This document shows, piece by piece, positions 2-45,052 of a DNA stretch of 64,000 nt. Source of the DNA: a virus. The translations under genes and the position numbers were made by a program. The notes under the pieces were generated by a model. The model worked only from the letters and a program-made list of their open reading frames with translations. It had not been told where the DNA came from and made no database searches. Position 1 is the first letter of the stretch; the number at the start of each line of letters is the position of its first letter. The DNA is taken from IMG/VR virus record IMGVR_UViG_3300042542_002916, positions 1-64,000 of that record, one strand, 5' to 3'.

Positions 2-586
2 AAAGACCTCTCACCTGAGGAAATTGACGCTCTAAAAGTAGAGAAAATGAATCGTGGAAAAGCACCAGTTGAATCAGGAAAATACACCCCTGATACTCAG
101 CCTAGAGATGCACAAGGAAAGTTCCGTTTAGTTCTAGCCCGTCTTAAGTCTGACTTAGGCACTGCTGGTCTTTCCCGTGTAGTTGAAAAGGTTGAAGAGG
201 CTGAAAACCTTGACAACGCTGGAGATTACAAGAAATCAGCTGAAGCAGCAGACGATTTGATGGGAATTATTGACCGATTGGACACAAAAGCATTGAATCC
301 TGAAGCTTTAGAGAACATTAGAAGCAGTTCCGCTGAGTTAGGAAAGGTTATTGCAAACCTTCCTTTTGCCTTCGGAGAGACTGCTACGAAGATTAGATTC
401 TCAGATGTTCCTCCAGCTCTTCAAAAGCTCATGGAAGACATGATTAAAAAGGTTGAAGACAAAATTGGTCAGGAAGATGCCGATATAGCAACTGAAGAAT
501 TGAAGAGCTTTATGTCTGGTGCTGATTACTACAACCAGTCAGAGATTTCCTCACAAATGGCGAAGCTTTTAAGGCTTCTTACCTAA
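2..586 (+). CDS. C-terminal part of a head-module protein (probably the prohead protease/head morphogenesis gene), truncated by the window start
   Basis: The frame is open from nt 2 (KDLSPEEIDALKVEK-M...), so the ATG at 47 is probably internal. Contains the YTPDTQPRDAQGKF motif seen in phage head-module proteins and lies directly upstream of the capsid gene. Confidence 0.5.
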   Translation, partial: KDLSPEEIDALKVEKMNRGKAPVESGKYTPDTQPRDAQGKFRLVLARLKSDLGTAGLSRVVEKVEEAENLDNAGDYKKSAEAADDLMGIIDRLDTKALNPEALENIRSSSAELGKVIANLPFAFGETATKIRFSDVPPALQKLMEDMIKKVEDKIGQEDADIATEELKSFMSGADYYNQSEISSQMAKLLRLLT

Positions 587-610
587 GAACCAGAAGTTGT
601 CTAAAAATCG

Positions 611-748
611 TACAATCACCTATTTAAATCCGATGTACTATTTAAATCAGGTGGAGTGCCTCCACGCGTTAAGCGTCTCGGAGTCCCTCGCCTCGACTGA
701 TCATAACTCACTAGAGCAACTTTGCTCTAACTAACTGCCCTAAGGAGG
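611..748 (+). promoter_or_regulatory. Capsid-gene leader: candidate -10 boxes (TACAAT 611-616, TACTAT 636-641), CTATTTAAATC direct repeat, hairpins and strong RBS TAAGGAGG
   Basis: Seen directly: CTATTTAAATC at 620-630 and 638-648; hairpin GTGGAG-tgc-CTCCAC at 651-665; hairpin TAGAGCAA-ct-TTGCTCTA at 712-729; TAAGGAGG at 741-748 before the GTG at 753. Confidence 0.5.
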
Positions 749-752
749 GACA

Positions 753-2885
753 GTGGACCGAATCAAAGAGATGATGGATCAGCTTGCTGAACTCGACGAC
801 AAACAAGTCGCTGAGCTCCAGAAGTCGATTATCAGCGAATTCGAAACGGTTGAGGGGGAGGACCCAACTCCACAATCAGTTGACGCGATGACGTCGCTTG
901 CCGACATGCTTGACTCCGTTCGTACAGAACTGAAGCAACGTGAGGCCGCAGTCACAGAGCTCGCCCAGCGGGCCGCTGAAGCTGCGACCCGTGTATACGG
1001 GCAAGATGGCGAAACCAAGGAAGATGGTTCTGATTCTTCCGAATCACCAAAAGAGATGCCTGCTGAAGAAGCAAAGCCAATGCCTGAAGCCGAAGCAGCA
1101 ATGCCTGCTGAGGATAAGAAGGAAGAAGCTCCTGCTGAAGAAGCAAAAGCAGCTCCAATGGAAGAGGAAATTCCAGTAGCGGATGCCCCAATGGCTGAAG
1201 CCCCAACACCTGCTGAAGAAGCTCCTAAAGTCGAAATGACTGAAGAAGAGAAAAAAGCAGAGGAAGAGAAGAAGAAGAACATGACCGAAGCGTCAACAGA
1301 GGTGGAAAAGACCGCCGAGCTCTCAACTGAAATCACAGCCGAGACAGTAACCGAGGCACCAGTTGCCGAAGTTCCAGTTACCGCATCAGCAGAAGACGAA
1401 GCAGCACCAGCTGCCGAAGCAGAAGCAGACGCACCCGCAGAAGCAGCAGAAGTAGCAGAAGATGCAGCAGAAGATTCAGCAGTAGCTGAAGACGATGCAG
1501 CAGCTGACGTTGCAGATGGTGCAGAAGCATCTATCAATGAAACACCAACAACAATTGAGCCAATGGCTCAGGAAACAATGGAGGCACCCGTGACCGCCGC
1601 TGCAAACAGCAACGACCTCACACCAGAGGTCCCAGCGGACCGCCGTCCTGTTGCTCAGGTATCAGCCGCTCCCGTGGCAATCACGGCAGGTGCAGATATT
1701 CCTGGCTATACAGCTGGCAGCCCACTGGATGACATGAGCGCCGTAGCAGAAGCTATGGCAAAACGCATTCATACGCTTCGTCGTGTGAATGGTGGAGATG
1801 GAGAACAACACATCGTTGCATCCGTATCCACATCATTCCCAGAAGCTCGCACCCTTACACAGGATGCAGAGTCCAACTGGGCTAAAGTCCAAGCCGTAAC
1901 AGGCCCAGAGGCACTTGTTGCTGCTGGTGGACATCAAGCACCATTTGAAGTCAAGTACGACATCTTTGGTCTAGGAACAACAGCTCGTCCAGTTCGTGAC
2001 GCGCTTCCTCGTTTCCAGGCTGATCGTGGCGGAATTCGCTTCATCACACCCCCTGTTCTTTCAGACTATGCAAACGCTGTTGGCGTATGGACTGCTGCTA
2101 ATGATGCAGCTACAACTCCAGACCCAGCTGCTAAGTCAAGCTTGACAGTGACAGCTGCAGCAGAAGTAACAGTAGCAACAGACGCTGTAACACTTCAAAT
2201 GCAGTTCGGTAACCTTGCAACTCGTGCATACCCTGAATTGATCGCTCGTCACAACGAGCTTGGTCTCATTCAGCACGCACGCGAAGCAGAGCAGAACCTT
2301 CTAGCGAAGATTGCAGCTGGTTCAACAGCTGTTACAACTACTTCACTAATCGGTTTCGGACGTGACTTCCTAGTACAGGTTGGTCGCGCTTCAGCTGCAT
2401 ACCGTTCACGTCACCGTCTAGAGGCAGATGCTCCACTACGCGTAATTATCCCAGCTTGGGTTAAAGACGCAATGGCAGCTGACCTTGCACTTGCAATGCC
2501 TGGCGACAACATGCTTAACGCATACGCAGAAATCGACGGCTACCTAGCTGCTCGTGGCGTAGTTGTGAGCTTCTCGCTTGACCAGAACGTTTACGGCTCA
2601 CAGGGTGCATCTGCACTTGTTGAGTTCGCAGACAGCTTCACTTGGTACCTCTTCGCTGAAGGAACATTCTTGTTCCTTGACGGTGGAAGCCTTGACCTTG
2701 GAATCATCCGTGATTCATCTCTAGTCGGAACTAACGACTACAAGATGTTCATTGAAACATTCGAAGGTGTTGCAAAGGTTGGTATCGAAGGTCTTGCAAT
2801 TACTTCAACCATCTCAGTGAACGGTGTAGCAGCAGCTCTCCGTGACACAACAGGTGGCGCAACAGCTGCAGCAGTCGAATACTAA
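753..2885 (+). CDS. Major capsid (hexamer) protein with a long acidic Ala/Glu/Pro-rich scaffold-like N-terminal region
   Basis: C-terminal ~430 aa (ITAGADIPG, LPRFQADRGG, FAEGTFLFLDGGSLDLGIIRDSSLVGTNDYKMFIETFEG) resembles cluster-B-type actinophage capsid hexamer proteins. Strong RBS and highly biased codon usage. Confidence 0.85.
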   Translation: MDRIKEMMDQLAELDDKQVAELQKSIISEFETVEGEDPTPQSVDAMTSLADMLDSVRTELKQREAAVTELAQRAAEAATRVYGQDGETKEDGSDSSESPKEMPAEEAKPMPEAEAAMPAEDKKEEAPAEEAKAAPMEEEIPVADAPMAEAPTPAEEAPKVEMTEEEKKAEEEKKKNMTEASTEVEKTAELSTEITAETVTEAPVAEVPVTASAEDEAAPAAEAEADAPAEAAEVAEDAAEDSAVAEDDAAADVADGAEASINETPTTIEPMAQETMEAPVTAAANSNDLTPEVPADRRPVAQVSAAPVAITAGADIPGYTAGSPLDDMSAVAEAMAKRIHTLRRVNGGDGEQHIVASVSTSFPEARTLTQDAESNWAKVQAVTGPEALVAAGGHQAPFEVKYDIFGLGTTARPVRDALPRFQADRGGIRFITPPVLSDYANAVGVWTAANDAATTPDPAAKSSLTVTAAAEVTVATDAVTLQMQFGNLATRAYPELIARHNELGLIQHAREAEQNLLAKIAAGSTAVTTTSLIGFGRDFLVQVGRASAAYRSRHRLEADAPLRVIIPAWVKDAMAADLALAMPGDNMLNAYAEIDGYLAARGVVVSFSLDQNVYGSQGASALVEFADSFTWYLFAEGTFLFLDGGSLDLGIIRDSSLVGTNDYKMFIETFEGVAKVGIEGLAITSTISVNGVAAALRDTTGGATAAAVEY

Positions 2886-3866: not shown

Positions 3867-4913
3867 ATGGCTACACAGGACTATGCGGCTAGCGTCCAAG
3901 GTGTGGCGATCCGAGTCACTAGACTGGACGCCTCAGGAACCTTGCTAAATGGAGCAGGGGATAGTTACACTACCTCGGCGTTCCTCCGTACATCATTTAC
4001 ACCCGAATATGAAGAGGGTGACGAAATCACAGAGAAGTCAGCTGACGGCACTGTATGCGTATCATACAAAGCCCCTGACACTCTAAAGCGCATTACTATG
4101 GAGATTGCAATTTGCGACCCAGACCCAGAGCTAACAGCTCTTATGTCTGGTGGTTTGCTTCTTCGTAAAAACTTTGGAAGCTATGCTTCCCCAGATAACA
4201 AGTCAATTGGTTGGGCCGCACCAGCCGTTGGCGACGACCCAGCAGGTAACGGCGTTGCCGTTGAAGTATGGTCATTCGCAGTTAAGGACGGAAAGCGTGC
4301 TTCAAGCCTTCCTTACTTCTACTGGGTATTCCCATACGTCAAGCTTCGTCAGTCAGGTGACCGTGTAATTGAAAACGGTCTTCTTGCTAACACCTTTGAA
4401 GGCTATGGTCTAGGAAACATTGAGTTTGATAGTGGTCTTGATGGTCGCTGGGAGTTCCCAGTTGCTACAGAGCGTCCATATGCATACTCACGCGCTTCAT
4501 GGGCACCACAAGGTCTTAAAGGCTTCTACCGCTGGTTTGCTGACTCAACTAAGACAGTTAACAACAAGTCTTTAACTTCAAACGTTGCAACACTTACAAC
4601 AGGTTCTGCACACGGATATGAAGTTGGTCAGAGCGTTACTGTATCTGGAGTGGACAGCACTTTCAACGGTACTTTCACAATCACAGCTGTTCCAACAACT
4701 ACAACCTTCCGCTATGCAAAGACTGCAACAGATGTTGCATCTGCAGCAGTTAGCCCAGTAGGAGCAGTTGTTCGTAACAAGGGTTACCTAGCTGTATCTG
4801 ATTTCACCTCACAAGGGTCAACATCTACATACAACGTTCCAGGTAGCGATACCTATAACCCAGATAACGCAATTGACTTCATCATCGCATCAGATGAGGA
4901 CCCAACAGCGTAA
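3867..4913 (+). CDS. Major tail protein with one inserted beta-rich 'HG..G..V.V.G...FNG' (FCCH-like) domain
   Basis: RVTRLDASG, YEEGDEITEKSADG and YFYWVFPY motifs of actinophage major tail proteins; followed by a terminator. Confidence 0.85.
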   Translation: MATQDYAASVQGVAIRVTRLDASGTLLNGAGDSYTTSAFLRTSFTPEYEEGDEITEKSADGTVCVSYKAPDTLKRITMEIAICDPDPELTALMSGGLLLRKNFGSYASPDNKSIGWAAPAVGDDPAGNGVAVEVWSFAVKDGKRASSLPYFYWVFPYVKLRQSGDRVIENGLLANTFEGYGLGNIEFDSGLDGRWEFPVATERPYAYSRASWAPQGLKGFYRWFADSTKTVNNKSLTSNVATLTTGSAHGYEVGQSVTVSGVDSTFNGTFTITAVPTTTTFRYAKTATDVASAAVSPVGAVVRNKGYLAVSDFTSQGSTSTYNVPGSDTYNPDNAIDFIIASDEDPTA

Positions 4914-7882: not shown

Positions 7883-10800
7883 ATGGCTATTGTAGGTGAT
7901 GCTTATATTGTCGTTCGCGCTCTCACCAACCGTATTGATAATGATATTAGAAATGGTTTTAGGGGAACGGACAAAATTGGTGAAGATGAAGGAAAAAAGA
8001 TTGGTGATTCTTTTAGTAGAGGTTTAAGCTCTTCTGGAGGAAAATCAAGTCTATTTAGTTCCAAATTTCTTAATGAAGCAGAGCAAGCAAGACAAGGATT
8101 TAACAAGCTAATTCAGACTGGTTACTTCTTAGGACCAGCTTTAGCAGGTGTTGCTGGTGCAGTTGGTGCACTAGGTGCATCTCTTGTCACTCTTACATCT
8201 GTATTAGGAGCAGCTGCCCCCTCAGCAATTGTTCTTGTTGGAGCACTAACTGCTTTAGCTCAAGCTGCAATTGTAGCTAAAATAGCTTTTGCTGGCGTTG
8301 GCAAAGCTATCGGAGCTGGTCTAAAAGCTTCAAAAGGTTCTGCAAAAGATACAGATGCACTAGCAGATGCAATCCGACGTACTGAAGATGCTCAACGGAG
8401 ACTGTTTAGGCTTCAAAACGAAGGTAGACCAGAGCTTTTAATTAGACTTACCGAACAACAAAAAGATGCAGAAGACTCTCTTGCTAATTCAAAAATTTCA
8501 GCTACAAGAGCTGAGCGAACATATAAAGAGTCTCAAGAAAAAACTAAAAAGGCTCTTGAAAACCTTAACAAAGCTCGTGAAGAGGCAAAAGAAAAACTAC
8601 AACAACTTCGCTTTGAAGTTGAGGGCGGTGCTATTTCTGAGAAGAAAGCACGCCTTGAGTTTGAAAAAGCTCGTGACTCACTGCAGCGCGTTCAAGACCT
8701 TCCACCAAACTCTCGCGCTCGTCAAGAGGCAGAGCTTGCATTTGCTGAAGCTGACCTCAATCTTCGTAAGGCAATTGATAAAAACAAAGATCTTAAATCA
8801 GAAGAGAAAAAAGCTACTGCTGCTGGTATTGAAGGTGCTCAAGCAGTTAAAGATGCAGTGCTTTCACGGCGTGATGCAATTAACGCCGAGGCTGACGCAT
8901 TAATTAATAGCAAACAGGCTAAAAAAGGTGTACTTGATGCAGAAAAAGCTCTTCAAGAAGCAACAGCAGAAGCTGGCAAAAATCCAGACGTCCAAAGCAA
9001 AGCACTACGAGATTTTGACAGACAGATAGCTGACGCAAAGCGTGCTGTAGAAGATGCAAAGAGAGATGAAGCAAAGGCTCGAAAGGGTTCAGGATCTGAT
9101 GCTTATGCAGATGCCCTAAATGATTTATCACCTGAGGCTAGAAGTTTTGTTGAATATATTGTTAGTCTTAAAGATGCATTCAAAGGGTTAAAAGCTGCTG
9201 CTGGTCAAGAATTATTTCCTAAGCTAGAAACAGCCATAAAAAATCTTCTTACAGAAGGCAACCTAAAAGTATTTAGAGACCTTCTCAGAGGAACTGGGTC
9301 TGCTTTAGGTGATGTTGCAATTGAAATATCAAAAACAATTACTGAAACTAAAAACTTTGGCGCTCTTCAACGTGTTTGGAAAACTAACGACAGGCTTATT
9401 GGCAAGTTAGGAAAAGTAACTGGAAATCTTTATGAAGGGTTTATAAATCTTTTAGATGCTGCAGGACCGCTCATTGACCGCTTTGGTGATTGGCTTGTAA
9501 AAATCACGGATACATGGTCAATGACCATGAAAGCCAAAAACGAGACTGGCAAGCTTACAGAGAACTTTAATAAAGCAGGAGATGTAGCTGCTCGTATTGG
9601 TGGAATTTTAAAGACTTACTTCAAGGGTTTCCAACAAATTGGAAAAGCTGTAATGGAAGGTGGCGCTGGAGAGCGTCTGCTTAAGTACTTTGAAGATGCT
9701 AGCAAGCGCTTTGAAGATTTAATGACCTCGATGAATGCTGATGGTTCTCTCGGTGAATACTTCGATAAAGCTACAGAAAACGGTCTCAAGGTATTAGACC
9801 TTCTTGTAAACATTGTTGCAGAGCTCTTAAAACTTGGTGATGATGAGGGTGTTGGTCTTTTTACTGATTCACTCAGCAGAGCAGTAGATACATTTGGAGA
9901 AATTGGAGGAGTCCTAACTGGTGCTGCTCCATCATTAGGACTCTTTGTTGAAGAATTTGCCCTTCTTATTAAGAACCTTACAGAGAGTGGTTCTATAGAC
10001 ACATTCTTTAAAATCCTAACCGAGGCTTTAGAAGTTTTAAATAAGATATTTGGAAACGAACAAGTTCAAGCAGTTATTAAATTTGTTGCTCCAATTTTTG
10101 CTATAACACGAGCTTTTGGCCTTATGTTTAAAGTTAGCAAGTTTGTTACTTTAGGCATAGCTGGAAACTTTATGGCACCGTTTAGAGCAGTCGGTAAGTT
10201 TAGAAAAGCTCTAGCCCCAGGTGGTGCTTTTGATGGACTTCGCCTCAAGGCTATGTATGCCACGGATGCTATTAAATCTGGATTTGGAAAAGTAAGTAAA
10301 GCTGCAGGTACAGCAAAAACTGCTATTGGTAATGCACTAACAACAGCTGGACAAGGAATTAAAGCTGGCGCAACAAAAGGTTTTGACGCTCTTAAATCAG
10401 GATTCTCAACTTTAGGAACTGCTGCAAAGAACGCTGCTATAGCAGTTGGAAATGCCTTAAAGAGGATAGTAATTGCTGTAGGACGCGCTTTGATGGCTAT
10501 CGGTCGTGCTTTGATGGCTAACCCATGGATTCTTATTATTATTGCAATCGTCGCGCTCGTTATTATCATTGTTAAAAACTGGGACAAGATTAAAGAAGTT
10601 GTTGGAGCAGCTGTTGAATGGATTGGTCAGAAAGTAGGAGCAGCTTGGGATTGGATTAAAGAGAAAACCTCTGGAGTTCTCAGTGCAGTTGTCACCTTCT
10701 TTACTGAGCTTCCAGGAAAACTATTAACTGCTATTCAAGGTTTAGCTACTACGGTTCTAGGGTTTATTGCTAAATATCACCCACTTGCCATTATTTGGAG

Positions 10801-11596
10801 ACTTGTATCTGAAAACTGGGAAAGTATTAAAACTTGGTTTACATCTCTTCCAGGGAAGATAAAAGACGCTGTAGTTGGCCTATCCACAACTGTTCTTGAG
10901 TTTATTAATAAGTATCACCCAATTCTTGTGATTTGGAGACTTGTTAACGAAAATTGGGAAAAGATTAAGACTTGGTTTACAGGTCTTCCTGGAAAAATTA
11001 AAGATGCGCTCGTTGGGCTCTCCACGACTGTCTCGGAATTTATCACTAAATATCACCCGATAGCTTTGTTAAAGAAAGCTGTTGAGGCTGCATGGCCTGC
11101 CGTATCTTCTTTTATTACATCAAAGCTTGACTCTATTGTCACCTTTATTAAAGGTCTTCCTTCCAAAATTGCATCTGCTGCAAGTGGAATGTTTAATGGA
11201 TTAAAAGAAGCGTTTAGAGGTGCAATTAACTTCATCATTGACAAATGGAACTCCCTATCATTCACACTTCCAAGCGTTACAGTATTTGGTAAAAAAATTG
11301 GAGGGTTTACACTCTCAACTCCTGACATACCAAGACTTGCTGCAGGTGGAGTTATCCCTGCATCACCAAACGGAACGCTTGCCACAATCGGTGAAGCAGG
11401 TCGTCCAGAGCGTGTAGAACCTCTTGACCCAGATGGTTTGTCAAAGCGTGACAAGGCAATCATCTCTATGCTCTCTGGTAATGGTGCTGGTGGAGCAACT
11501 ATCAATGTCTATCCATCAGCAGGAATGAACGAGCGTGAGCTTGCAAATCTTGTCTCTAAGCAACTTGCTTACCAGTTAAGAAAAGGTGCTGCATAA
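7883..11596 (+). CDS. Tape measure protein
   Basis: 1237 aa, helical and Ala-rich, with Trp/Phe-periodic repeats (KYHP..IWRLV.ENWE.IKTWFT.LPGKIKDA) and C-terminal IPRLAAGG..IGEAGRPE; RBS GGAGG. Confidence 0.92.
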   Translation: MAIVGDAYIVVRALTNRIDNDIRNGFRGTDKIGEDEGKKIGDSFSRGLSSSGGKSSLFSSKFLNEAEQARQGFNKLIQTGYFLGPALAGVAGAVGALGASLVTLTSVLGAAAPSAIVLVGALTALAQAAIVAKIAFAGVGKAIGAGLKASKGSAKDTDALADAIRRTEDAQRRLFRLQNEGRPELLIRLTEQQKDAEDSLANSKISATRAERTYKESQEKTKKALENLNKAREEAKEKLQQLRFEVEGGAISEKKARLEFEKARDSLQRVQDLPPNSRARQEAELAFAEADLNLRKAIDKNKDLKSEEKKATAAGIEGAQAVKDAVLSRRDAINAEADALINSKQAKKGVLDAEKALQEATAEAGKNPDVQSKALRDFDRQIADAKRAVEDAKRDEAKARKGSGSDAYADALNDLSPEARSFVEYIVSLKDAFKGLKAAAGQELFPKLETAIKNLLTEGNLKVFRDLLRGTGSALGDVAIEISKTITETKNFGALQRVWKTNDRLIGKLGKVTGNLYEGFINLLDAAGPLIDRFGDWLVKITDTWSMTMKAKNETGKLTENFNKAGDVAARIGGILKTYFKGFQQIGKAVMEGGAGERLLKYFEDASKRFEDLMTSMNADGSLGEYFDKATENGLKVLDLLVNIVAELLKLGDDEGVGLFTDSLSRAVDTFGEIGGVLTGAAPSLGLFVEEFALLIKNLTESGSIDTFFKILTEALEVLNKIFGNEQVQAVIKFVAPIFAITRAFGLMFKVSKFVTLGIAGNFMAPFRAVGKFRKALAPGGAFDGLRLKAMYATDAIKSGFGKVSKAAGTAKTAIGNALTTAGQGIKAGATKGFDALKSGFSTLGTAAKNAAIAVGNALKRIVIAVGRALMAIGRALMANPWILIIIAIVALVIIIVKNWDKIKEVVGAAVEWIGQKVGAAWDWIKEKTSGVLSAVVTFFTELPGKLLTAIQGLATTVLGFIAKYHPLAIIWRLVSENWESIKTWFTSLPGKIKDAVVGLSTTVLEFINKYHPILVIWRLVNENWEKIKTWFTGLPGKIKDALVGLSTTVSEFITKYHPIALLKKAVEAAWPAVSSFITSKLDSIVTFIKGLPSKIASAASGMFNGLKEAFRGAINFIIDKWNSLSFTLPSVTVFGKKIGGFTLSTPDIPRLAAGGVIPASPNGTLATIGEAGRPERVEPLDPDGLSKRDKAIISMLSGNGAGGATINVYPSAGMNERELANLVSKQLAYQLRKGAA

Positions 11597-13924
11597 ATGG
11601 CTAATCAAGCTCAGGAAAATAATTTTGTAGACCGTGGGTTAATTCCGCTTCCACAGCCACATCTAACTGGCATGAAGCTTCAAGCCAATATTATTCTTGG
11701 CGAGTTTATTTTTAACACCATTGACGAATATGGCGTTACTTGGGTTATAACAAATATTGATGGCTGGTGGCGTCACCCATCCCCTGAAATGCCAGATATT
11801 CCTCGTGGTTTTGGTGACGGTTCTTATGATGTTCAAGGACGCTACAGCGCTAGAAACTTTACCCTTGAAGGTGTATTCCTAACCCCAAATCCTTCTCTTG
11901 TGGAAGCAGCTCGCGACCGTTTAATTGCTGCTACAAACCTTGTATATCGAGGTGTATGGCTAAAGACTGGCAATGACCCAATTCGTGCGTCTTTTGTCCG
12001 TCTTGGTGGAGATGTAAATATTGACACTGTTAACGCAAGAGGACGCACTGAGTTTTCTATCTCTCTTCGTGCTGCAGACCCAATTAAATACTCTTGGAAT
12101 GATACAAACGAAGATGGTTATGACACCGTTGATATTCCAGTTAAAAATTTAACTTTAGGCTATGCAGGCTCTGGAATTGTGACAAACGTTGGAAATTACA
12201 ACGTTCCTTGCTATCTAGAAGTAAGCGGTCCTTTTACTGGTCCAGGTAGAATTTTTAACAGAACAACAGAAGAACTTATTCTTATTACTCAAGGTCTAAA
12301 AGGAAGTATTGTTAGTTCTATTGTCAACAAGCAGTTGATCTTTAATGTGGAAACTCTTGAGGATATAGCAACTCTGACTACCACCACTGCTCATAGGTTT
12401 ACTGTAGGAAGTAGCATCTTTGTCTCTGGTTTAGGTTCTCCTTTTGATGGAGAGCAGATCATAACTTCAATCCCTACAGACACCACATTTACCTATGTTG
12501 CTGGTGCAGCATCAATCAGGTCTGTAACACACAAGGCTCTTGCTTCAAGCGTAGCTACATTAGAGACAACAGCTGCTCATGGTTTTACAACTGGTCAACA
12601 AATCCTAATTAATGGTGTAGATGCATTGTTTGACGGAACATATACGATTACCTCAACACCTACTTCTAGCAAGTTTACTTACGCAAAAACTCGCGTACCG
12701 CCCAGAACAATTACAGCTAAGGTACTTGTCTCAAACATTGCAACTTTAACTACTTCTGACGCTCATCAATTTATTATCGGTGAGCAGGTGACAATCGCTG
12801 ATGTAGATGTCAACTTTAATGGCGTGTACACAATTGTTGCTACACCATCTACAACCGAGTTTAGCTACGCTGCTACTCGTACAAACGCTCGTTTTGTGAA
12901 TAATAAATCTATGGCTGCAGATGTTGTTACATTGACAACCACGGTTCCACATGGCTTTGTGCCTAATGAAACAGTCAACATTTCTAATATTGACTTATCT
13001 CTCAATGGTGGCTACACCATTACAGCAACTCCAACCTCTACAACTTTCTCATACAAGCGTCCTCGCGCAACTCAGAGAAGTATTATAGTAAAAGCTATTT
13101 CCTCTAATACAGCAACTCTCACAACTTCAGAGCCTCATGGTTATGTAGTGGGGGAAAAAGTTGTTGTAGAAAACGTCGGTTCTCCATTTGATGGAACATA
13201 CACAATCACTAGCCTGCCAAGTAACTCAACATTTACTTATGCAAAAACAGCTTCTGATTTAATTGCTACAGCCGTCACAGACGCCACAGTAAGAGCTGGA
13301 AGTCGTAAGATTAAATCTCGTCAGTTGGTTGGTAACTCCGTGACTATCTCAACTATAAACACACACGGTGTAATCCTCGGGGAGCAAGTCACTATTGTAG
13401 GTGTCGGTTCTCCATTTGATGGAACATACACCGTTACATCAGTTCCAACTAATACCAGCTTTACTTACGCAAAAGTAGATACAAACGTTGCTTTAGCAAA
13501 TGTCGATACTGATGGTGTTGTAGAAATGCCAGGAACTATTACATCAACTGGTGTAACACCAGACGGTCTTGCTTCTGTTGCAGGTTCTCTTGTGTTTCAG
13601 GCAGCTACTGGAACAGCAAGCGTTTCTGACACAATTGCAAGAATTGTAGCTTCTGGAAAAGCAATCAAAACTAACAACGTAACCTTCACCCCAGGTATTA
13701 GTGGAGCAACAGCAGTTCTTCAAGCAGACATTCTTGAGATTGATACTCAAAACAGAGAAGTTGCTTTTAATGGTGAACTTGAAGGAGCTAGAGGACGCAT
13801 TGATGTTCTTGCTGACTTTATCAAGCTTGCTCCTGGAGATAATGAGATAGAATTTGAAGACACTGGTGCTCCAGAGGGAACAGCAAGTCTTCGGGTGTAT
13901 TACCGCTCTGGATGGCTTGGATAA
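11597..13924 (+). CDS. Distal tail (Dit-like) protein carrying six inserted FCCH-like beta domains
   Basis: Follows the tape measure gene. N-terminal IDGWW..P/LRAADPIKYS and C-terminal KLAPGDNEIEF..YRSGW; six HG..G repeats in between. Confidence 0.8.
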   Translation: MANQAQENNFVDRGLIPLPQPHLTGMKLQANIILGEFIFNTIDEYGVTWVITNIDGWWRHPSPEMPDIPRGFGDGSYDVQGRYSARNFTLEGVFLTPNPSLVEAARDRLIAATNLVYRGVWLKTGNDPIRASFVRLGGDVNIDTVNARGRTEFSISLRAADPIKYSWNDTNEDGYDTVDIPVKNLTLGYAGSGIVTNVGNYNVPCYLEVSGPFTGPGRIFNRTTEELILITQGLKGSIVSSIVNKQLIFNVETLEDIATLTTTTAHRFTVGSSIFVSGLGSPFDGEQIITSIPTDTTFTYVAGAASIRSVTHKALASSVATLETTAAHGFTTGQQILINGVDALFDGTYTITSTPTSSKFTYAKTRVPPRTITAKVLVSNIATLTTSDAHQFIIGEQVTIADVDVNFNGVYTIVATPSTTEFSYAATRTNARFVNNKSMAADVVTLTTTVPHGFVPNETVNISNIDLSLNGGYTITATPTSTTFSYKRPRATQRSIIVKAISSNTATLTTSEPHGYVVGEKVVVENVGSPFDGTYTITSLPSNSTFTYAKTASDLIATAVTDATVRAGSRKIKSRQLVGNSVTISTINTHGVILGEQVTIVGVGSPFDGTYTVTSVPTNTSFTYAKVDTNVALANVDTDGVVEMPGTITSTGVTPDGLASVAGSLVFQAATGTASVSDTIARIVASGKAIKTNNVTFTPGISGATAVLQADILEIDTQNREVAFNGELEGARGRIDVLADFIKLAPGDNEIEFEDTGAPEGTASLRVYYRSGWLG

Positions 13925-13951: not shown

Positions 13952-15967
13952 ATGGCTCTTCAGACATCTGTTGAATATAGATATTTTCTAACAGACCTCC
14001 TTACTAACTCTGTTATCTCTGAAATACCCTTTAAAGGGGTTTCTTATCAACGTGTGAATCGTCGTGCTGGAGAGTTTTCTGGGGACATACCTTTCATTGA
14101 GGCAACAAAAGGTTTAGATATTTACGAAGCAACAATGCCGGGAAGAACTGGCTTGTATGTAATGCGTAATCAAGTCTGTGTGTGGGGTGGGATTATTTGG
14201 TCACGTTCTTATAGCGTAGAAAGCAAAACTCTCTCTGTAAGCGCTTCAGAATTTACAAGCTATTTTTACCACCGAAATCTATGGCAAACTCTTCAATACG
14301 GTTCCGAGTTTGTTGGTATCTCTTCTTTTGCCGTATCTAGTGGAACAGGAACTATTACAACAGAAGTAACCCATGGGTTTGTTGTTGGTCAAAAAGTAAA
14401 AATTACTTTCACCAGTCCGCTTGTTGATGGTGTCCACACAGTTACGGCTGTTCCTGCAACAAACCAATATCAATTTACAACAACTTCTGCAAACGGTTCT
14501 GGACCAAGTACAAGTGGAGCTTGTAGAAGCTTGGTTGACACATACGATTTTGCACGAGATTTGGTTTATAGAGTTGCAACTGATTTAGGTGGAATTAACT
14601 TTGCCAATGAAGTTATTAAGCCAGCTAAAGAGCTACAAGGCTCTGTTATCTCTAAGCGTCGCTCGGCTGGTCTTGTAACTCTACGAACATCTTCACCGCA
14701 TGAGGCAATACCTGGTCAAGAGATTGAGGTTGTAGAAGTAGGCTCTGGTTTAGATGGTCTTCATGTTATTACAGAAGTCCCAAATTCTTCAACAATTGTT
14801 TATAGCTTAAGTGGTGCAGATTTGTCGGAGACTGCCATATCTGGTATCCGTTCTCTAAACGTAATTAGAAAAAAACTTGTAGACAATCTTGCAACTATTA
14901 CCTTAGATAGACCTCATGGAGCAGCGGTAGGGCAAACTGTAATTTTGGAAGGTATAGATGCTTTCTATACAAAAAAACTAGATTCAACATTTAACGGTCG
15001 ATTTACTATTACAGGTATTCCATCAGCTACAGAATTTACTTTTATCTCTGGAGGAATTTTAAATGTAATAGACCCTGCTACTGGCAATGGACTTGTTGTA
15101 GCTGGCGGTATTGCAACCTTTGGTTCAAAATTTATTTATGGAGACTTTGGAAGTTTTACATCTAACTCTGATATTGGAATTCTCTTTGAGAGTCTTGCAA
15201 AAAGTGGTGAATATCAAGATACCCAAATCTTTCGTGGTTTTGAGCAAAGAAGTGTTGGTGAAGTTCTAGAGACATATTCAAACATTGTTAAAGGTGGTTT
15301 TGAGTATCGAATCGACTGTGACTATGACTTTGATACTGCACAGTTCACAAGGACTTTTAGAATTCTACCAATTGAGAGGTCCCAGTCTCCTTTAGGTTTT
15401 GTGTACACAGCTGAGGAGCTAGGCGCAGATCAGATTGTTTTTGAGTATCCAGGCAATATCTCCACCTTTACCGTCGAAGAAAGCTCGGAAGATTCTGCAA
15501 CAAGATTTTTTGTTGTTGGAAATATAGAAGACTTATCAGACGCTGCAAGTCAGCCATATGCGGGTGCTTCAGCTAAAGACCTTCTTGATAATAAAACTGG
15601 AAGAAGTTGGCCTATTCTTGACCAAGTAGAGACTCTTGATAAAGTCCAAGATGAGCTAACTCTATATAACTACGCAGAAGATTATTTATACGAGTCAAGA
15701 CCTCCTATTGGTAAATACAGCATTACCGTAAATGGTTCTCTTGCTCCAATTATTGGTTCCTATTTCCCGGGGGATTGGTGCTCTGTCATCATTGATGATG
15801 AATATGTTCGTCAGCGTTTAGCAAATGACCAAGAGCCTAGAGATGACCTGTTGATTAGGAAAATTAACTCGTATACGGTTAATGTCCCAGACAGTCCTAC
15901 ATTTCCAGAATCAGTACAATTAGAACTAATTACAGACTGGAAAGTCGATAAAAGAGTGGATGCATAA
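13952..15967 (+). CDS. Minor tail/baseplate hub protein (Gp37-like) with three inserted FCCH-like domains
   Basis: YRYFLTDLLT, VWGGIIWSR, FEYPGNI and YFPGDWC motifs; follows the Dit gene. Confidence 0.75.
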   Translation: MALQTSVEYRYFLTDLLTNSVISEIPFKGVSYQRVNRRAGEFSGDIPFIEATKGLDIYEATMPGRTGLYVMRNQVCVWGGIIWSRSYSVESKTLSVSASEFTSYFYHRNLWQTLQYGSEFVGISSFAVSSGTGTITTEVTHGFVVGQKVKITFTSPLVDGVHTVTAVPATNQYQFTTTSANGSGPSTSGACRSLVDTYDFARDLVYRVATDLGGINFANEVIKPAKELQGSVISKRRSAGLVTLRTSSPHEAIPGQEIEVVEVGSGLDGLHVITEVPNSSTIVYSLSGADLSETAISGIRSLNVIRKKLVDNLATITLDRPHGAAVGQTVILEGIDAFYTKKLDSTFNGRFTITGIPSATEFTFISGGILNVIDPATGNGLVVAGGIATFGSKFIYGDFGSFTSNSDIGILFESLAKSGEYQDTQIFRGFEQRSVGEVLETYSNIVKGGFEYRIDCDYDFDTAQFTRTFRILPIERSQSPLGFVYTAEELGADQIVFEYPGNISTFTVEESSEDSATRFFVVGNIEDLSDAASQPYAGASAKDLLDNKTGRSWPILDQVETLDKVQDELTLYNYAEDYLYESRPPIGKYSITVNGSLAPIIGSYFPGDWCSVIIDDEYVRQRLANDQEPRDDLLIRKINSYTVNVPDSPTFPESVQLELITDWKVDKRVDA

Positions 15968-15969
15968 AA

Positions 15970-17571
15970 ATGGCAACTAGAAGAAGTGCAAGAAGTTCCT
16001 CTATTACTGGGTCTATTAGCGATGTTATGCGTCGTATTAAATATCTAGAATCCCGACCTGCTCCGTCAAAGCTTGCTAACCAAGTTGTGCGACGAGACAA
16101 CATTCAACCACGAGCTATAGCAACTGACCAAATTGCTCTTCAAGCTATTACAAACAGTCAAATGGCTGCAGACGCAATTGCTCAAGCGCAGTTGCAGGCT
16201 AACTCTGTTGGTAATGATGAGCTGGCTGACAACTCTGTTAACAGTGCTGAGATTGTAGATAATGCTGTTGGCAGTTCTGAAATTGCATCTGGTGCTGTTA
16301 AAGCAGATGAGATTGATGTAGATGCGGTTGGAAGCTCAGAAATTGGAACTAATGCTGTAGATAGCTCAGAGATAAATGCTAACGCTGTCGGTAATGATGA
16401 ATTGGGTACAGACTCGGTTCGCTCAGATGAGATTTTTGCTGATTCTGTTGGTAACTCAGAAATTGGATCTAACGCCGTAGATAGTGCTGAAATTACTACT
16501 AATGCCGTGGGTGCCGATGAAATCGCTACTAACGGTGTTGGTGCTGATGAAATTGCCTTAGATGGTGTTGGCAGTTCAGAGATTTCGACTAATGCTGTAG
16601 ATAGTGCAGAGATTAATGCTAATGCTGTTACTGCTGATGAAATCGCTACTAACGGTGTTGGCACTGATGAGATTGCTCTAGACGGTGTTGGAAGCTCTGA
16701 GATTGCAACAAACGCTGTAGATACTGCTGAGATTGCAACAAACGGTGTTGGTGCTGATGAAATTGCAACAAATGCTGTTGGTGTTGATGAAATTGGTTTA
16801 GATGCTGTAGGTAACAATGAGCTTGGTAACCTTGCTGTAGATACAGCAAACATTGTAGATTCGGCTGTTACTGCTAGCAAAATAGCTACAGGTTCTATTA
16901 ATGGATCTTTAATCACTCCAACTCACATTGCAACTAACTCTGTAGGTCAAGCAACCATTGGCCCAAACGCAGTTGGTTCTGGTGAAATTATTAACGGTGC
17001 AGTTGGTTCTGATGAAATTGCTGCAGGAGCAGTAACTTCAGGTAAAATCGGGGCTAATGCCGTAACTTACGATAAGCTTGGATCAAGCACCATCGGACCC
17101 GGAGCAAATCAAGTTGCTCGCGGAAGTCATACGCATAGTGATTTTTCTAGTAGCACGCACAATCACAACGTAACAATTCCATCTGGTGGAGCACACAGCC
17201 ACATTGGAGTTTCTGGAGCTCACGCTCACTCAGGATCAACAGGCGGACCTTCATCTCGAAGATTTAAAACTGAAATCTCTGACTACATGCCAGAAGATTT
17301 GCAAAAAATTCTTCAGTTAAATTTAGTTAAATATAAATACCACAAAAGATGGACGCCACTTAATAGAGGTCGTGAGTGGAGCTACGGCTATATCGCGGAA
17401 GACGTAGAAGATTTAGGCGTTCAAGAAATTATTGAGTATGATGATAAAAAACGACCTTCCGCAATTAATTACGGTCTTTTATCGACATTTGTCTTAGAGA
17501 TTGTAAAGGTTCAGCAAAATGAGATAGACTTACTCAAGCAGCAACTAGCAAAGTTGATGGAGACAAAATGA
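15970..17571 (+). CDS. Tail fibre with decapeptide repeats, HxH tip motifs and a C-terminal S74-type intramolecular chaperone
   Basis: Roughly 30 repeats of (N/D)(A/S/G)V(G/D)xxEIxx; HTH/HNH/HSH/HAH; SSRRFKTEI...YGYIAEDV...INYG followed by a coiled coil. Confidence 0.8.
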   Translation: MATRRSARSSSITGSISDVMRRIKYLESRPAPSKLANQVVRRDNIQPRAIATDQIALQAITNSQMAADAIAQAQLQANSVGNDELADNSVNSAEIVDNAVGSSEIASGAVKADEIDVDAVGSSEIGTNAVDSSEINANAVGNDELGTDSVRSDEIFADSVGNSEIGSNAVDSAEITTNAVGADEIATNGVGADEIALDGVGSSEISTNAVDSAEINANAVTADEIATNGVGTDEIALDGVGSSEIATNAVDTAEIATNGVGADEIATNAVGVDEIGLDAVGNNELGNLAVDTANIVDSAVTASKIATGSINGSLITPTHIATNSVGQATIGPNAVGSGEIINGAVGSDEIAAGAVTSGKIGANAVTYDKLGSSTIGPGANQVARGSHTHSDFSSSTHNHNVTIPSGGAHSHIGVSGAHAHSGSTGGPSSRRFKTEISDYMPEDLQKILQLNLVKYKYHKRWTPLNRGREWSYGYIAEDVEDLGVQEIIEYDDKKRPSAINYGLLSTFVLEIVKVQQNEIDLLKQQLAKLMETK

Positions 17572-41392: not shown

Positions 41393-44300
41393 TTAGGACA
41401 CAACTCCGATTTTGTAACGGACAACAACAATTCCTGAACCGCCAGAACCGCCATAGTTATTACTGCTGTAGTGAGAACCTCCACCACCACCAGAACCTGT
41501 GTTTTGTGCTGCGTCGCCACCTGGAACGTTTGTCTGAGAGTTAATGCTTCCGTATCCACCAGGGTTAGCAGTATTAATACCATCAACACCACGGTTATCA
41601 AAGTTGTTAGCAGCACCACCGCCACCGCCTCCGCGACCACCAGAGTTGTCTTGGTATGCGGAGTAGTTAGAACCACCACCACCAGCTGCCCAATAGAAGC
41701 TCGGGCCCAGAATAGTATTTAGTGTTCCAGCACCACCTCTAGGGGGATTGCTTTGACCAGCAGTAGCAGAACCACCACCACCAGCTGGGTACCAAAAACC
41801 TGAACCAGTTCCACCGTCTTTACCTTGCGAAGCAGTTGCTGTACCACGACGGCCTCCACCATATTCACCGTCAGTAGATCTGTTGCTTTGAGCGTTTCCG
41901 CCACCACCAGATGCACCACCACCAGAACCTACAGTCTGACCATTATTCAAACCACCAGCTGGGTTGTTACCACGGTCGTGGTTAGATGCACCACCACCAC
42001 CACCAAACGCTACTAAGTTAGCGTTAGTTCCAATAAGTGAAGAGCTTGCACCTTCAAAACCTCGACGGTTACCAACACCTGAGTTGTTACCGCTACCACC
42101 AGCACCTACCACTACTGCATAGTTTCCTGCTGCGGCTGTAAATGTGCCAGCTAGATAACCACCAGCTCCACCGCCGCCGCCCATATCTGAACCGCCGCTA
42201 CCGCCTCCACCAATTACCATGTATTCAATGGTGTTGCTTCCTGTAGTTGCGTTACCAGCTACTGAAACTGCAAGAGTTGCTGATCCAACGCTTGTAAATC
42301 TGTGAACAGCATAAATGTCGTTTCCTACTGTAAGGCTTGATACAGACCCTCCAGTTGCAACAGGGTAGTCACCGCTAGGACTTCCAGTAATTGCGTAACG
42401 AAGTACAACAATTCCTGAACCACCAGCACCACCAGCACCAGTGTAGTGAGAACCTCCACCACCACCAGAACCTGTGTTTGCTCCTGCGTTACCACCAGCA
42501 ACACTTGAGTTGGTGTTAATGTTACCGAAACCACCAGAAGTTGCTGCATTGATACCATCAAGACCAGGGTTGCTGAAGTTGTTATAAGCACCACCGCCAC
42601 CGCCTCCGCGACCACCACGGTTGTCTTGGTATGCGGAGTAGTTAGCACCACCACCGCCAGCTGCCCAGAAATAGTTAACGCCTAAAATAGCATTTGCAGT
42701 TCCTATACCACCTGTAGGTGGGTTGCTTCGACCAGCACCACCAGAACCGCCACCGCTACCTGGATACCATGTACCAGAACCAACTCCGCCGTCTGTACCC
42801 TGACCAGCAGTTCCTGTACCTCTACGGCTACCGCCATATGCACCATCTGGGCTGCGATTATCTTGTGCACCACCGCCACCACCTGATGAACCTCCACCAG
42901 AGGCAACAGTTTGACCGTTGTTCACACCACCAGCTGGGTTGTTACCACGGTCGTGGTTAGATGCACCACCACCACCACCAAGGGCGGTTATGTTTACACC
43001 AGTTCCAATAAGTGAAGATACGTCACCTTCAAAACCTCGACGAGCAACTTGAGGTCCTGGCGCTCCTGCACCACCAGCACCTACGACTACTGCATAATCT
43101 CCTACTGAAGGAGTAAATGTTCCAGCTCTATAGCCACCAGCTCCACCGCCGCCGCCCATATCTGAGCCACCGCCGCCTCCGCCACCTACTACTAGATACT
43201 CAACACTTGATCCACTTGGGACAGATGAAACAGAAAAAGTAGAAGAACCAACAGCGGTAAATGCGTGTACTCTAAAGAATCTTCCTTCGCTATATGCATT
43301 TGGAAGAATTGTTCCACCAGTTGCAGTGATAGGGATAAAAGTAGCTTCATTGACTGTAAAATTGTGAGCATCGTAGACTGTTTCTACAAAATAAAACTTT
43401 TGGTCGTAGTTTGATACAAAATTACCACCAACAGAAGGAGCTGCATATTGAAGCATCTCGTTTTTAACAAAATTGGAATTTTTAACATGAAAAATGTCTT
43501 TATCTATAGATACACCAATTTTTGTAAATGTTTGACTGCCAGAACCGCCAGATGGAGTCAAACTGGAAGCATCGGTAGGGAGGCCCTTCAACCTAATGTT
43601 ATATAAATTTGGACCAGCTTCGGTAATTTGAGAAATAAAATATGTAGTGTTATTTGCTAAACTAGTTGCAGCAGCGCCTGAAGTTGAATAGCGAACCATC
43701 GCTCCAACGTAGTAATCAAGACCCGCTCCAGCGGTTACTTGAACTAAAATATCTGTAGCTGTAAAACCAAGAATAGTGCAGTTACCGTTTGGTGCTGTAG
43801 CACTAGCACCAGCTGCTCCAACATAACCTTGATTACCGCCATCAAATTCTAGAGGGGTTTCAAGTAGAACTGTAATAGGGATTTCTGTAACAGGGTTACG
43901 GTTGTTTCCAGCAAAAGTACGAGCTTGATTAGCTAATTGCATTGTTCCAGACATAGTGGAAACAATGTCAATTACATCTCCGTCTGGAGTTGCGCTTACT
44001 TGAAAAGTAGATACACCTGAAACATTGAGAGAGTTAGTTGTTTTTAGAAAAACAATTCCTCTAGGATTATCAAAGAAATACCCAGTCGATGCTGGAACTG
44101 TTAAATTGTAATATAAAGGTGTTCCAAGAGGTTGATTAGCAAAATTTTCTGTTCCATGTGTAACAGCAATTGTGTCGTTTGTTGTATTTACTCCTGTAAT
44201 TGTGCTTGTTGCACCGCCAACTACTCCGCTGTTGGACCAATCAATATTAAAAGTTGAAAGAGTGTTAGAACCATCAAAAGTCTGAGCTGTTGCAGAGTTA

Positions 44301-44968
44301 GATGAGTCAAAAGATTTAGCTGAAGTGTTTGAAGCTTCAAACTCCTGAGAAATTGTTGAGTTAAGGTTGAGGAAGTAGAACGGGGTATTAAGACCAAAAC
44401 CGTGAGTAGAGTCTGTTTTTACAGTAAGGGTTGAGACTGGCTCTGCGTCTGTTGTAATACCTTCTGCATCTGCAATACGAATCTGAGAGCCCTGAAAGAA
44501 TTCTCCAGTAATAATCGACGTGTAAAGGTCTTCAATAGCATTATTACCATTTTGCTCGTCTTTACATAGATATGTAAAGGTAGTCCCGTTAGGGATAGAG
44601 TTAATAATGTAAGCACCGTCTGCGGTAACTGACTTAGTTCCAGTTACGTTAATTGGAATACCGACAGCTAAACCATGTTCTGTAGCTGTAACTACAGTGA
44701 TTTCACGAGTTCCAGTGTTCGTAGAGATAGATGTGATACCTGGAATTGTGGTATCACCGCTCTTAGAGAAGAACGAAGGGGTATTGTTAATAAGCTCAAC
44801 GGTTTCCCACTTAGTAGGCTGTAGACCATACTCAAAGTCGGTATCAATTAAGTTTTCTGGCTGGGAAATACGGAGCTTGGTTACTGGATCAATAAACTCT
44901 TTTGGAAAACGAATCTCTCCGCCTGTGCCGCTAGAGCTGCTGCCGCCGCCACCTAAGAAACCTGGCAT
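41393..44968 (-). CDS. Large virion structural protein with two C-terminal glycine-rich domains
   Basis: KLRISQPENLIDTDFEYGLQPTKWE N-terminal motif, HG repeats, and duplicated EYLVVGGGG...GGSGIVV.RY domains. Confidence 0.8.
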   Translation of the reverse strand: MPGFLGGGGSSSSGTGGEIRFPKEFIDPVTKLRISQPENLIDTDFEYGLQPTKWETVELINNTPSFFSKSGDTTIPGITSISTNTGTREITVVTATEHGLAVGIPINVTGTKSVTADGAYIINSIPNGTTFTYLCKDEQNGNNAIEDLYTSIITGEFFQGSQIRIADAEGITTDAEPVSTLTVKTDSTHGFGLNTPFYFLNLNSTISQEFEASNTSAKSFDSSNSATAQTFDGSNTLSTFNIDWSNSGVVGGATSTITGVNTTNDTIAVTHGTENFANQPLGTPLYYNLTVPASTGYFFDNPRGIVFLKTTNSLNVSGVSTFQVSATPDGDVIDIVSTMSGTMQLANQARTFAGNNRNPVTEIPITVLLETPLEFDGGNQGYVGAAGASATAPNGNCTILGFTATDILVQVTAGAGLDYYVGAMVRYSTSGAAATSLANNTTYFISQITEAGPNLYNIRLKGLPTDASSLTPSGGSGSQTFTKIGVSIDKDIFHVKNSNFVKNEMLQYAAPSVGGNFVSNYDQKFYFVETVYDAHNFTVNEATFIPITATGGTILPNAYSEGRFFRVHAFTAVGSSTFSVSSVPSGSSVEYLVVGGGGGGGSDMGGGGGAGGYRAGTFTPSVGDYAVVVGAGGAGAPGPQVARRGFEGDVSSLIGTGVNITALGGGGGASNHDRGNNPAGGVNNGQTVASGGGSSGGGGGAQDNRSPDGAYGGSRRGTGTAGQGTDGGVGSGTWYPGSGGGSGGAGRSNPPTGGIGTANAILGVNYFWAAGGGGANYSAYQDNRGGRGGGGGGAYNNFSNPGLDGINAATSGGFGNINTNSSVAGGNAGANTGSGGGGGSHYTGAGGAGGSGIVVLRYAITGSPSGDYPVATGGSVSSLTVGNDIYAVHRFTSVGSATLAVSVAGNATTGSNTIEYMVIGGGGSGGSDMGGGGGAGGYLAGTFTAAAGNYAVVVGAGGSGNNSGVGNRRGFEGASSSLIGTNANLVAFGGGGGASNHDRGNNPAGGLNNGQTVGSGGGASGGGGNAQSNRSTDGEYGGGRRGTATASQGKDGGTGSGFWYPAGGGGSATAGQSNPPRGGAGTLNTILGPSFYWAAGGGGSNYSAYQDNSGGRGGGGGGAANNFDNRGVDGINTANPGGYGSINSQTNVPGGDAAQNTGSGGGGGSHYSSNNYGGSGGSGIVVVRYKIGVVS
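41405..43325. repeat. Tandem duplication (~975-nt period) of the glycine-rich domain
   Basis: 56-nt perfect identity at 41951-42006 versus 42926-42981, plus several further identical blocks. Confidence 0.85.
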
Positions 44969-45052
44969 TAGTTACTACCTCTCTCGGGAGCTAAAAGATT
45001 TGTTAATAGAATAACAGTCTTTGTACATAATGATTTTGTAAGATTCATATAA

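Follow-up and report, generated by a model that had tools for sequence, protein, structure and literature searches.

A predicted recursively nested stack of FCCH-like barrels in the distal tail protein of an actinobacterial-type siphophage

The distal tail protein (Dit) encoded at positions 11597–13924 (+) of the viral record IMGVR_UViG_3300042542_002916 (IMG/VR; the window analyzed is the whole stretch of 64,000 nucleotides, positions 1 to 64,000 of that record) very probably carries a recursively nested stack of FCCH-like β-barrels in a single loop of its galectin domain. According to the predicted model, the order would be galectin > 1 > 2 > 3 > 4 > {5, 6}, in which each of four barrels holds the next one and two complete barrels stand at the tip. 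A first-pass annotation of the DNA had proposed such a Russian-doll arrangement. Structure prediction and comparison of homologues now support it, through the barrel spans in the model, a split-chain interface score (ipSAE) of 0.72 and the homologue counts.

The insert comprises 473 residues (aa 236–708). In relatives without repeats, a loop of about 8 residues connects the galectin strand ending at about aa 231 with the one starting at about aa 709, and for this reason aa 236–708 is regarded as a single insertion into a single galectin loop. It contains six repeats with an invariant His at aa 266, 328, 390, 452, 514 and 590, that is, with His-to-His spacings of 62, 62, 62, 62 and 76 aa. Each repeat consists of five strands in the model. 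Repeats 1 to 4, predicted as open barrels at depths 1 to 4, run directly into the next repeat without a closing hairpin and cover aa 236–305 (12302..12511), 306–367 (12512..12697), 368–429 (12698..12883) and 430–491 (12884..13069), all on the plus strand. Repeats 5 (aa 492–567; 13070..13297, +) and 6 (aa 568–644; 13298..13528, +), both at depth 5, are predicted as closed barrels, repeat 5 with its own closing hairpin and repeat 6 as the tip barrel. In both, 14–15 extra residues after the F-x-Y strand form an additional two-strand piece in the model, and the single copy in the major tail protein of the same window likewise has a closing piece after this strand.

After repeat 6, four return segments of 15–18 residues follow at aa 645–708, and those quoted in the first-pass annotation were located at aa 646–705 (nt 13532–13711). 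All four are modelled as a pair of short strands with a 3-residue turn in between, in the manner of the repeat 5 and repeat 6 closing pieces. Segment 1 (aa 645–660; 13529..13576, +) is predicted to close repeat 4 from its structure match, the split-chain fold and a covariation maximum with that repeat. Segments 2 (aa 661–675; 13577..13621, +) and 3 (aa 676–690; 13622..13666, +) are assigned to repeats 3 and 2, respectively, by structure match, split-chain fold and covariation. Segment 4 (aa 691–708; 13667..13720, +) would close repeat 1, as suggested by its structure match and by the homologue layout, where it is the positional counterpart of the single closing piece in one-repeat Dits. Thus, the proposed succession of six repeats, the first four open and the last two closed, followed by exactly four segments, was confirmed from the His spacing and the model strands.

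The AlphaFold2 model was built from 119 homologues, with a mean predicted local distance difference test score (pLDDT) of 90.3. The return segments were modelled at pLDDT 88–94, and a strand was found at 555–567 in repeat 5. Barrel membership was read from the first and last model residues of the VIA-align alignments, which are compact (68–79 residues, root-mean-square deviation (rmsd) 1.9–3.2 Å); those of the open repeats cover 68–76 residues with an rmsd of 2.4–3.2 Å. Repeat 1, also matched by the repeat profile (REP) hidden Markov model (HMM), aligned together with segment 4 as a single barrel spanning model residues 236..709 (Tsr1, Z 6.4, 75 aa). Repeat 2 with segment 3 spanned 304..693 (FCCH domains of UBA1 and UBA6, Z 9.4 and 9.1, 75–76 aa), repeat 3 with segment 2 spanned 366..676 (domain II of EF-Tu and aIF2-gamma, Z about 7, 69–73 aa) and repeat 4 with segment 1 spanned 429..662 (LumP, Z 7.0, 68 aa). 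The matches of the last two repeats were contiguous, at 490..569 for repeat 5 (an eEF1A domain, Z 6.6) and at 568..648 for repeat 6 (phi92/K1F endosialidase barrel, Z 9.7–10.3, rmsd 1.9 Å, 78–79 aa). Since a 75-residue alignment at 2.4 Å excludes residues of a distant domain, each open repeat would form a barrel jointly with a single tail segment, the order of the segments being reversed.

The recursive order A1-B1-C-B2-A2 is thereby obtained in the predicted model as 236..709 > 304..693 > 366..676 > 429..662 > {490..569, 568..648}. The reverse-order pairing of the four segments with repeats 4, 3, 2 and 1, which the first-pass annotation had expected from AlphaFold, was seen as these single-barrel spans, and in the predictions the terminal segments neither formed a separate domain nor lacked contact with repeats 1–4. 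The FCCH assignment is based on superposition with 9mcb_A residues 215–296 (Z 9.4, rmsd 2.4 Å, 75 aligned) and 9qiv_B (Z 9.1), and in the relative P0303 with 7pvn_A (Z 9.9, rmsd 2.1 Å, 77 aligned, 20% identity). The Pfam family PF16190 gave no match on the Dit at E ≤ 0.1, and precomputed matches to it are present on a fraction of the close homologues.

The pairing was also modelled with ESMFold2 after splitting the protein, with aa 236–491 as chain 1 and aa 644–708 as the partner, as two chains in three runs. The ipSAE was 0.70–0.72 in the three runs, while the best control gave 0.00; for comparison, 58 of 80 solved complexes and 2 of 110 mismatched pairs attain this mark. Agreement between the runs was at least 97% of about 325 contacts, with a partner pLDDT of at least 89, and all 64 tail residues contacted repeats 1–4. 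The lowest-error pairs joined 307–314 with 690–682, antiparallel on the first strand of repeat 2, and 337–339 with 688–690; for repeat 3 and segment 2, they joined 372 and 399–401 with 672–674, also antiparallel. In addition, residues 237–249 and 272–279 of repeat 1 touched the tail, and residues 430–442 and 458–465 of repeat 4 were in the interface. On chain 1, the interface was formed by equivalent strand positions in all four open repeats, the invariant His included, and the register of the contacts is consistent with the nested barrel spans. This model supports binding of the tail to repeats 1–4 and does not by itself show it.

Architectures of homologues were counted with profile HMMs on 388 collected proteins, about 310 of which gave a usable architecture. 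The tail after the last repeat lengthens with the number of open repeats, as anticipated in the first-pass annotation. There is no tail in the 40 proteins without repeats, in which the N- and C-terminal parts abut, and its median length is 15 aa with one repeat (n = 13), 27 aa with two repeats, which are always contiguous (n = 122), 79 aa with six (n = 106) and 86 aa with seven (n = 18). Overall, the insert amounts to about 76 aa per repeat.

Some relatives carry further changes in the array. In P0303, aa 257–548 are two tandem copies of a unit of 146 aa, in which about 30 aa, corresponding to two closing pieces, follow a contiguous pair of repeats. Since the pair was duplicated whole with its closing material, the nested pair appears to behave as one evolutionary unit. 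In the AlphaFold2 model of this protein the inner barrels are contiguous and closed, covering 310..387 and 458..535 (FCCH matches with Z as high as 9.9); aa 277–313 and 371–419 are below pLDDT 50, two-repeat relatives being mapped ambiguously there, and only the inner barrels are informative. In relatives of 851–866 aa (P0042, P0055, P0059, P0072), a seventh barrel with its own closing piece lies between the two strands of the repeat 6 closing hairpin, aligned to window positions 13487–13520, and the four return segments are unchanged. To judge from the aligned sequences, this position points to arm growth at the tip.

Covariation was calculated as mutual information with average product correction (MI-APC) on the 119-row alignment (effective number of sequences, Neff, 47), with block scores centred by row and column. 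The reverse-order pairing of segments 1–4 with repeats 4–1 was the best of 24 assignments when the top 5, top 10 or top 20 pairs were considered, and the full six-way pairing ranked 1st–6th of 720. The raw MI-APC block table was noisy, repeat 6 being generally variable, and the predicted pairing stood out only after centring. Conservation alternates along window positions 12302–13720: among the open repeats, 1 and 3 are conserved and 2 and 4 vary, the return segments alternate likewise in reverse order (4 and 2 conserved, 3 and 1 variable), and repeat 6 is the most variable repeat. This alternation fits the nested pairing and is opposite to what a same-order pairing would give.

Several points weigh against the nested topology. 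Its support is prediction plus comparison throughout, and the two predictors, ESMFold2 and AlphaFold2, shared the same 119-row alignment and are thus not independent. For two of the pairings, repeat 1 with segment 4 and repeat 4 with segment 1, the basis is the end residues of the alignments, at moderate Z values of 6.4 and 7.0. The large homologue counts stem from a few related lineages and thus represent a small number of independent events; a clean count was not obtained for any relative with exactly three or four repeats, and the tail of P0138 is longer than its count predicts. The power of the covariation is low at this Neff, and double-centring was chosen after the raw table had been seen. 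Finally, the sequence similarity of the return segments to the repeat 5 closing piece is not significant, with no HMM match and negative position-specific scoring matrix (PSSM) scores, although two of the four nevertheless rank 3rd–5th of about 760 windows by PSSM. The first-pass description of these segments as closing-like therefore draws its support from pattern, predicted structure and comparative counts rather than from similarity in sequence.

The lack of significant sequence similarity and the long P0138 tail both speak for the barrels being beads on a string, that is, six tandem domains in which repeats 1–4 are a complete five-strand variant and aa 645–708 form a separate small β domain or a linker. 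However, the single-barrel structural alignments extend from each open repeat into the tail, the whole tail contacts repeats 1–4 in the split-chain fold with an interface score far from that of the best control (0.72 against 0.00), and tail length follows the number of open repeats, disappearing where there is no repeat. A tandem array is thus considered unlikely. Alternatively, the return segments might be exchanged within the hexamer and complete the barrels of an adjacent Dit subunit. Phage tail proteins commonly swap strands, and predictions with a monomer or with two chains cannot separate contacts within a chain from those between chains. Yet a single short galectin loop holds both ends of the insert, which makes the intramolecular path the simplest, this path was modelled with high confidence in one chain, and arms radiating from a ring would diverge, so that such an exchange is very improbable. 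Equally small is the chance that homology between repeats and closing pieces led the predictors to impose the nesting, the real arm being flexible and partly disordered. The AlphaFold2 predicted TM-score (pTM) of only 0.51 and the poor P0303 model where the alignment is ambiguous are in its favor, but the homologue counts, the duplicated P0303 unit, the matched conservation and the covariation are all independent of the predictors.

For the nested topology, the path of the chain can be proposed as follows. The chain would leave the galectin domain and successively lay down the first five strands of each barrel from 1 to 4, with every child barrel inserted after strand 4 of its parent. The two complete barrels 5 and 6 would then form at the tip, and the returning chain would add one two-strand closing hairpin each to barrels 4, 3, 2 and 1 before completing the galectin domain. 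In each barrel, the first strand, laid down on the outward path, would pair antiparallel with the returning segment, so that two hydrogen-bonded strands would cross every stalk junction as a two-stranded ribbon, and this double connection may make each junction stiff. On a hexameric Dit ring, there would be six arms, each four barrels long, holding two freely folding barrels off the tail tip. The arm may have lengthened in evolution by insertion of a new barrel at the tip.

The variable tip barrels would bind cell-surface glycans, like the carbohydrate-binding modules of evolved Dits. In favor of this proposal, the tip barrel matches an endosialidase barrel best in structure, and the β-barrel of the K1F endosialidase holds a polysialic-acid site (PMC12632334). 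In addition, it is established that Dits can carry binding modules in galectin loops, and such Dits bind host cells (PMC7291167). Glycan binding, rigidity and the hexameric arrangement are nevertheless proposed with much less confidence than the topology.

The Dit is classed as an evolved Dit variant with a Si3-like architecture. Evolved Dits of Lactobacillus phage J-1 and of lactococcal and streptococcal phages (PMC7291167) have, as here, a Dit core with extra modules placed in a loop of the peripheral galectin domain, and the same module likewise also decorates the tail tube and Tal, with a presumed role in auxiliary adhesion. They differ in that their modules are BppA-type carbohydrate-binding modules, one or two in number and placed next to each other, instead of six FCCH-like barrels of which four would be nested; by VIA-align the fold here is FCCH-like and not BppA, and no Pfam carbohydrate-binding module was found in the Dit. 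The closest analogue of the nest itself is the Si3 insertion of the cyanobacterial RNA polymerase β' subunit (RpoC2), which has been described as inserted recursively over six levels (PMC13114784). There, too, a small β domain is inserted recursively into itself, and the elongated arm leaves and re-enters one loop of the host domain. However, Si3 is built from the hybrid (HABAS) motif, belongs to a cellular enzyme and contacts the sigma factor, and homology to the Dit arm is not implied. The best barrel matches here were FCCH, the endosialidase barrel and EF-Tu domain II, and not the HABAS/SBHM fold, and the Foldseek match to the Si3 crystal structure 8emb was weak (E 1.2e-3, probability 0.04). 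On comparison of the two, the likeness is an architectural analogy and not family membership.

FCCH-type barrels are known as outward decorations of the siphophage tail tube proteins gp13 and gp39 (PMC13576161). The E1 FCCH domain (PF16190) has the same six-stranded barrel and is in E1 also an insertion with adjacent termini, but both this domain and the gp13/gp39 decorations are single contiguous domains, unlike the predicted nested Dit barrels. The best Foldseek match was the Dit gp23 of mycobacteriophage Bxb1 (PDB 9d93, chain M; E 1.8e-13), in which the same core elements are likewise separated by a large insert of several domains. As a precedent, gp23 (L001:8928-10985) was discarded: its insert repeats another α/β unit of about 65 aa several times, without a barrel-profile match, and the units look contiguous and not nested. 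In the literature searched (FCCH, nested insertion, evolved Dit, Dit arms), whose coverage is incomplete, no account of a phage tail with a nested barrel arm was found.

The identification as a Dit of 775 aa is based on position, profiles and fold. The open reading frame (ORF) lies directly after the tape measure gene (7883–11596, 1237 aa, with a transmembrane-rich centre) and before a Tal-like gene (13952–15967), which matches the minor tail protein family phrog_1885. The N-terminal belt domain with the first galectin strands (aa 1–235; 11597..12301, +) was assigned by VIA-align and by the minor tail protein family phrog_5577, which covers aa 29–224, and Dit and tube-like fold matches cover model residues 27..171. 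The rest of the galectin-like C-terminal domain, aa 709–775 with the stop codon (13721..13924, +), was recognized by PF22768 (SPP1_Dit C-terminal domain, aa 689–773, 35.4 bits with a cut-off of 25), and in repeat-less relatives the C-terminal HMM abuts the N-terminal one. SPP1 Dit (2x8k) superposed on the model with Z 17.3 and an rmsd of 3.4 Å (237 residues aligned over 27..774), and six other solved Dits, among them those of monocin, Douge, TP901-1, 80alpha and p2, with Z 14–17. A sequence search of solved structures gave no useful match for the Dit or the major tail protein.

The window corresponds to the structural and replication region of a tailed phage, and the phage is an actinobacterial-type siphophage. 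Its gene order is capsid (753–2885), major tail protein (3867–4913, phrog_792), overlapping chaperone ORFs, tape measure, Dit and Tal-like gene, followed by a fibre that ends in a Peptidase_S74 chaperone and by a family A DNA polymerase. The capsid-like ORF (753–2885, +) has an N-terminal part of about 280 aa before the capsid fold, which is of low complexity, acidic and rich in Ala, Glu and Pro. In the fibre protein (15970–17571, +), the C-terminal Peptidase_S74 intramolecular chaperone domain is at aa 428–482, and several tail fibre PHROGs match.

The same barrel was found elsewhere in the window. The major tail protein contains a single closed copy at about aa 228–304 (4548..4778, +; REP HMM E 4.6e-26), and the Tal-like protein has three non-contiguous copies within 14318..15043 (+; REP HMM E 1e-11 to 1e-15; phrog_9998). 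With one copy on the tail tube protein and three on Tal in addition to those of the Dit, the barrel would be displayed by the tail as a whole. A minus-strand ORF of 1192 aa (41396–44971) has one partial barrel-profile match (E 9e-10), and because of it the barrel family reaches beyond the tail tube, Dit and Tal genes.

Among cultured phages, the nearest relatives of the Dit are a minor tail protein of Actinomycetia phage DSL-LC01 (46% identity) and the minor tail proteins of Microbacterium phages of roughly 190 kb (about 33% identity). Metagenomic relatives are on contigs of 100–139 kb, form hundreds of clusters and are abundant in metagenomes; the family is probably from large phages of freshwater Actinobacteria. 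Two cultured candidates for a multi-level nest were rejected: the protein of DSL-LC01 has a single closed repeat only, and gp98 of Microbacterium phage A3Wally has only one repeat in the loop, followed towards the C-terminus by an array of another kind. In A3Wally gp98 (L002:994-4917), P0140, P0143, P0150 and many relatives, this array after the Dit core comprises 6–7 copies of the first half of the barrel (profile 2–34, period of about 36 aa), followed by one full repeat and then by two or three copies of the second half only. It could be a second kind of nesting with mid-domain insertion or a different fibrous fold, with no obvious correspondence between the counts of first and second halves. 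As a separate observation, two-repeat Dits (P0272–P0285 and others) often carry a CBM_4_9 module (PF02018), not at the barrel tip; their extra length is an N-terminal extension of about 170 aa or lies inside the N-terminal domain (profile about 181–190).

Decoration of Dits with binding modules and deep self-nesting of one fold in cyanobacterial RNA polymerase were already known. Relative to the literature searched, the new element is a five-level nest of one small barrel, predicted as a projecting arm on a virus tail. If confirmed, it would be a second, independent and much more variable natural case of recursive insertion, and relatives with 0 to 7 barrels would allow the origin and folding of nested architectures to be studied. 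It would also be a warning for annotation, as tandem-looking repeats may be discontinuous domains, and it would suggest a compact, stiff scaffold for the display of binding domains. More tentatively, and with clearly lower expectation, recursive self-insertion might be a general phage route to adhesin arms of adjustable length, in which case the relatives with 0, 1, 2, 2+2, 6 and 7 barrels might be a graded natural series where each new barrel enters the closing hairpin of the last one. If so, the arm would fold like a zipper from tip to base, the outer barrels would have to open first, giving a resistance to force unlike that of tandem domains, and the depth of the arm would set the reach of the tip barrels through the host envelope.

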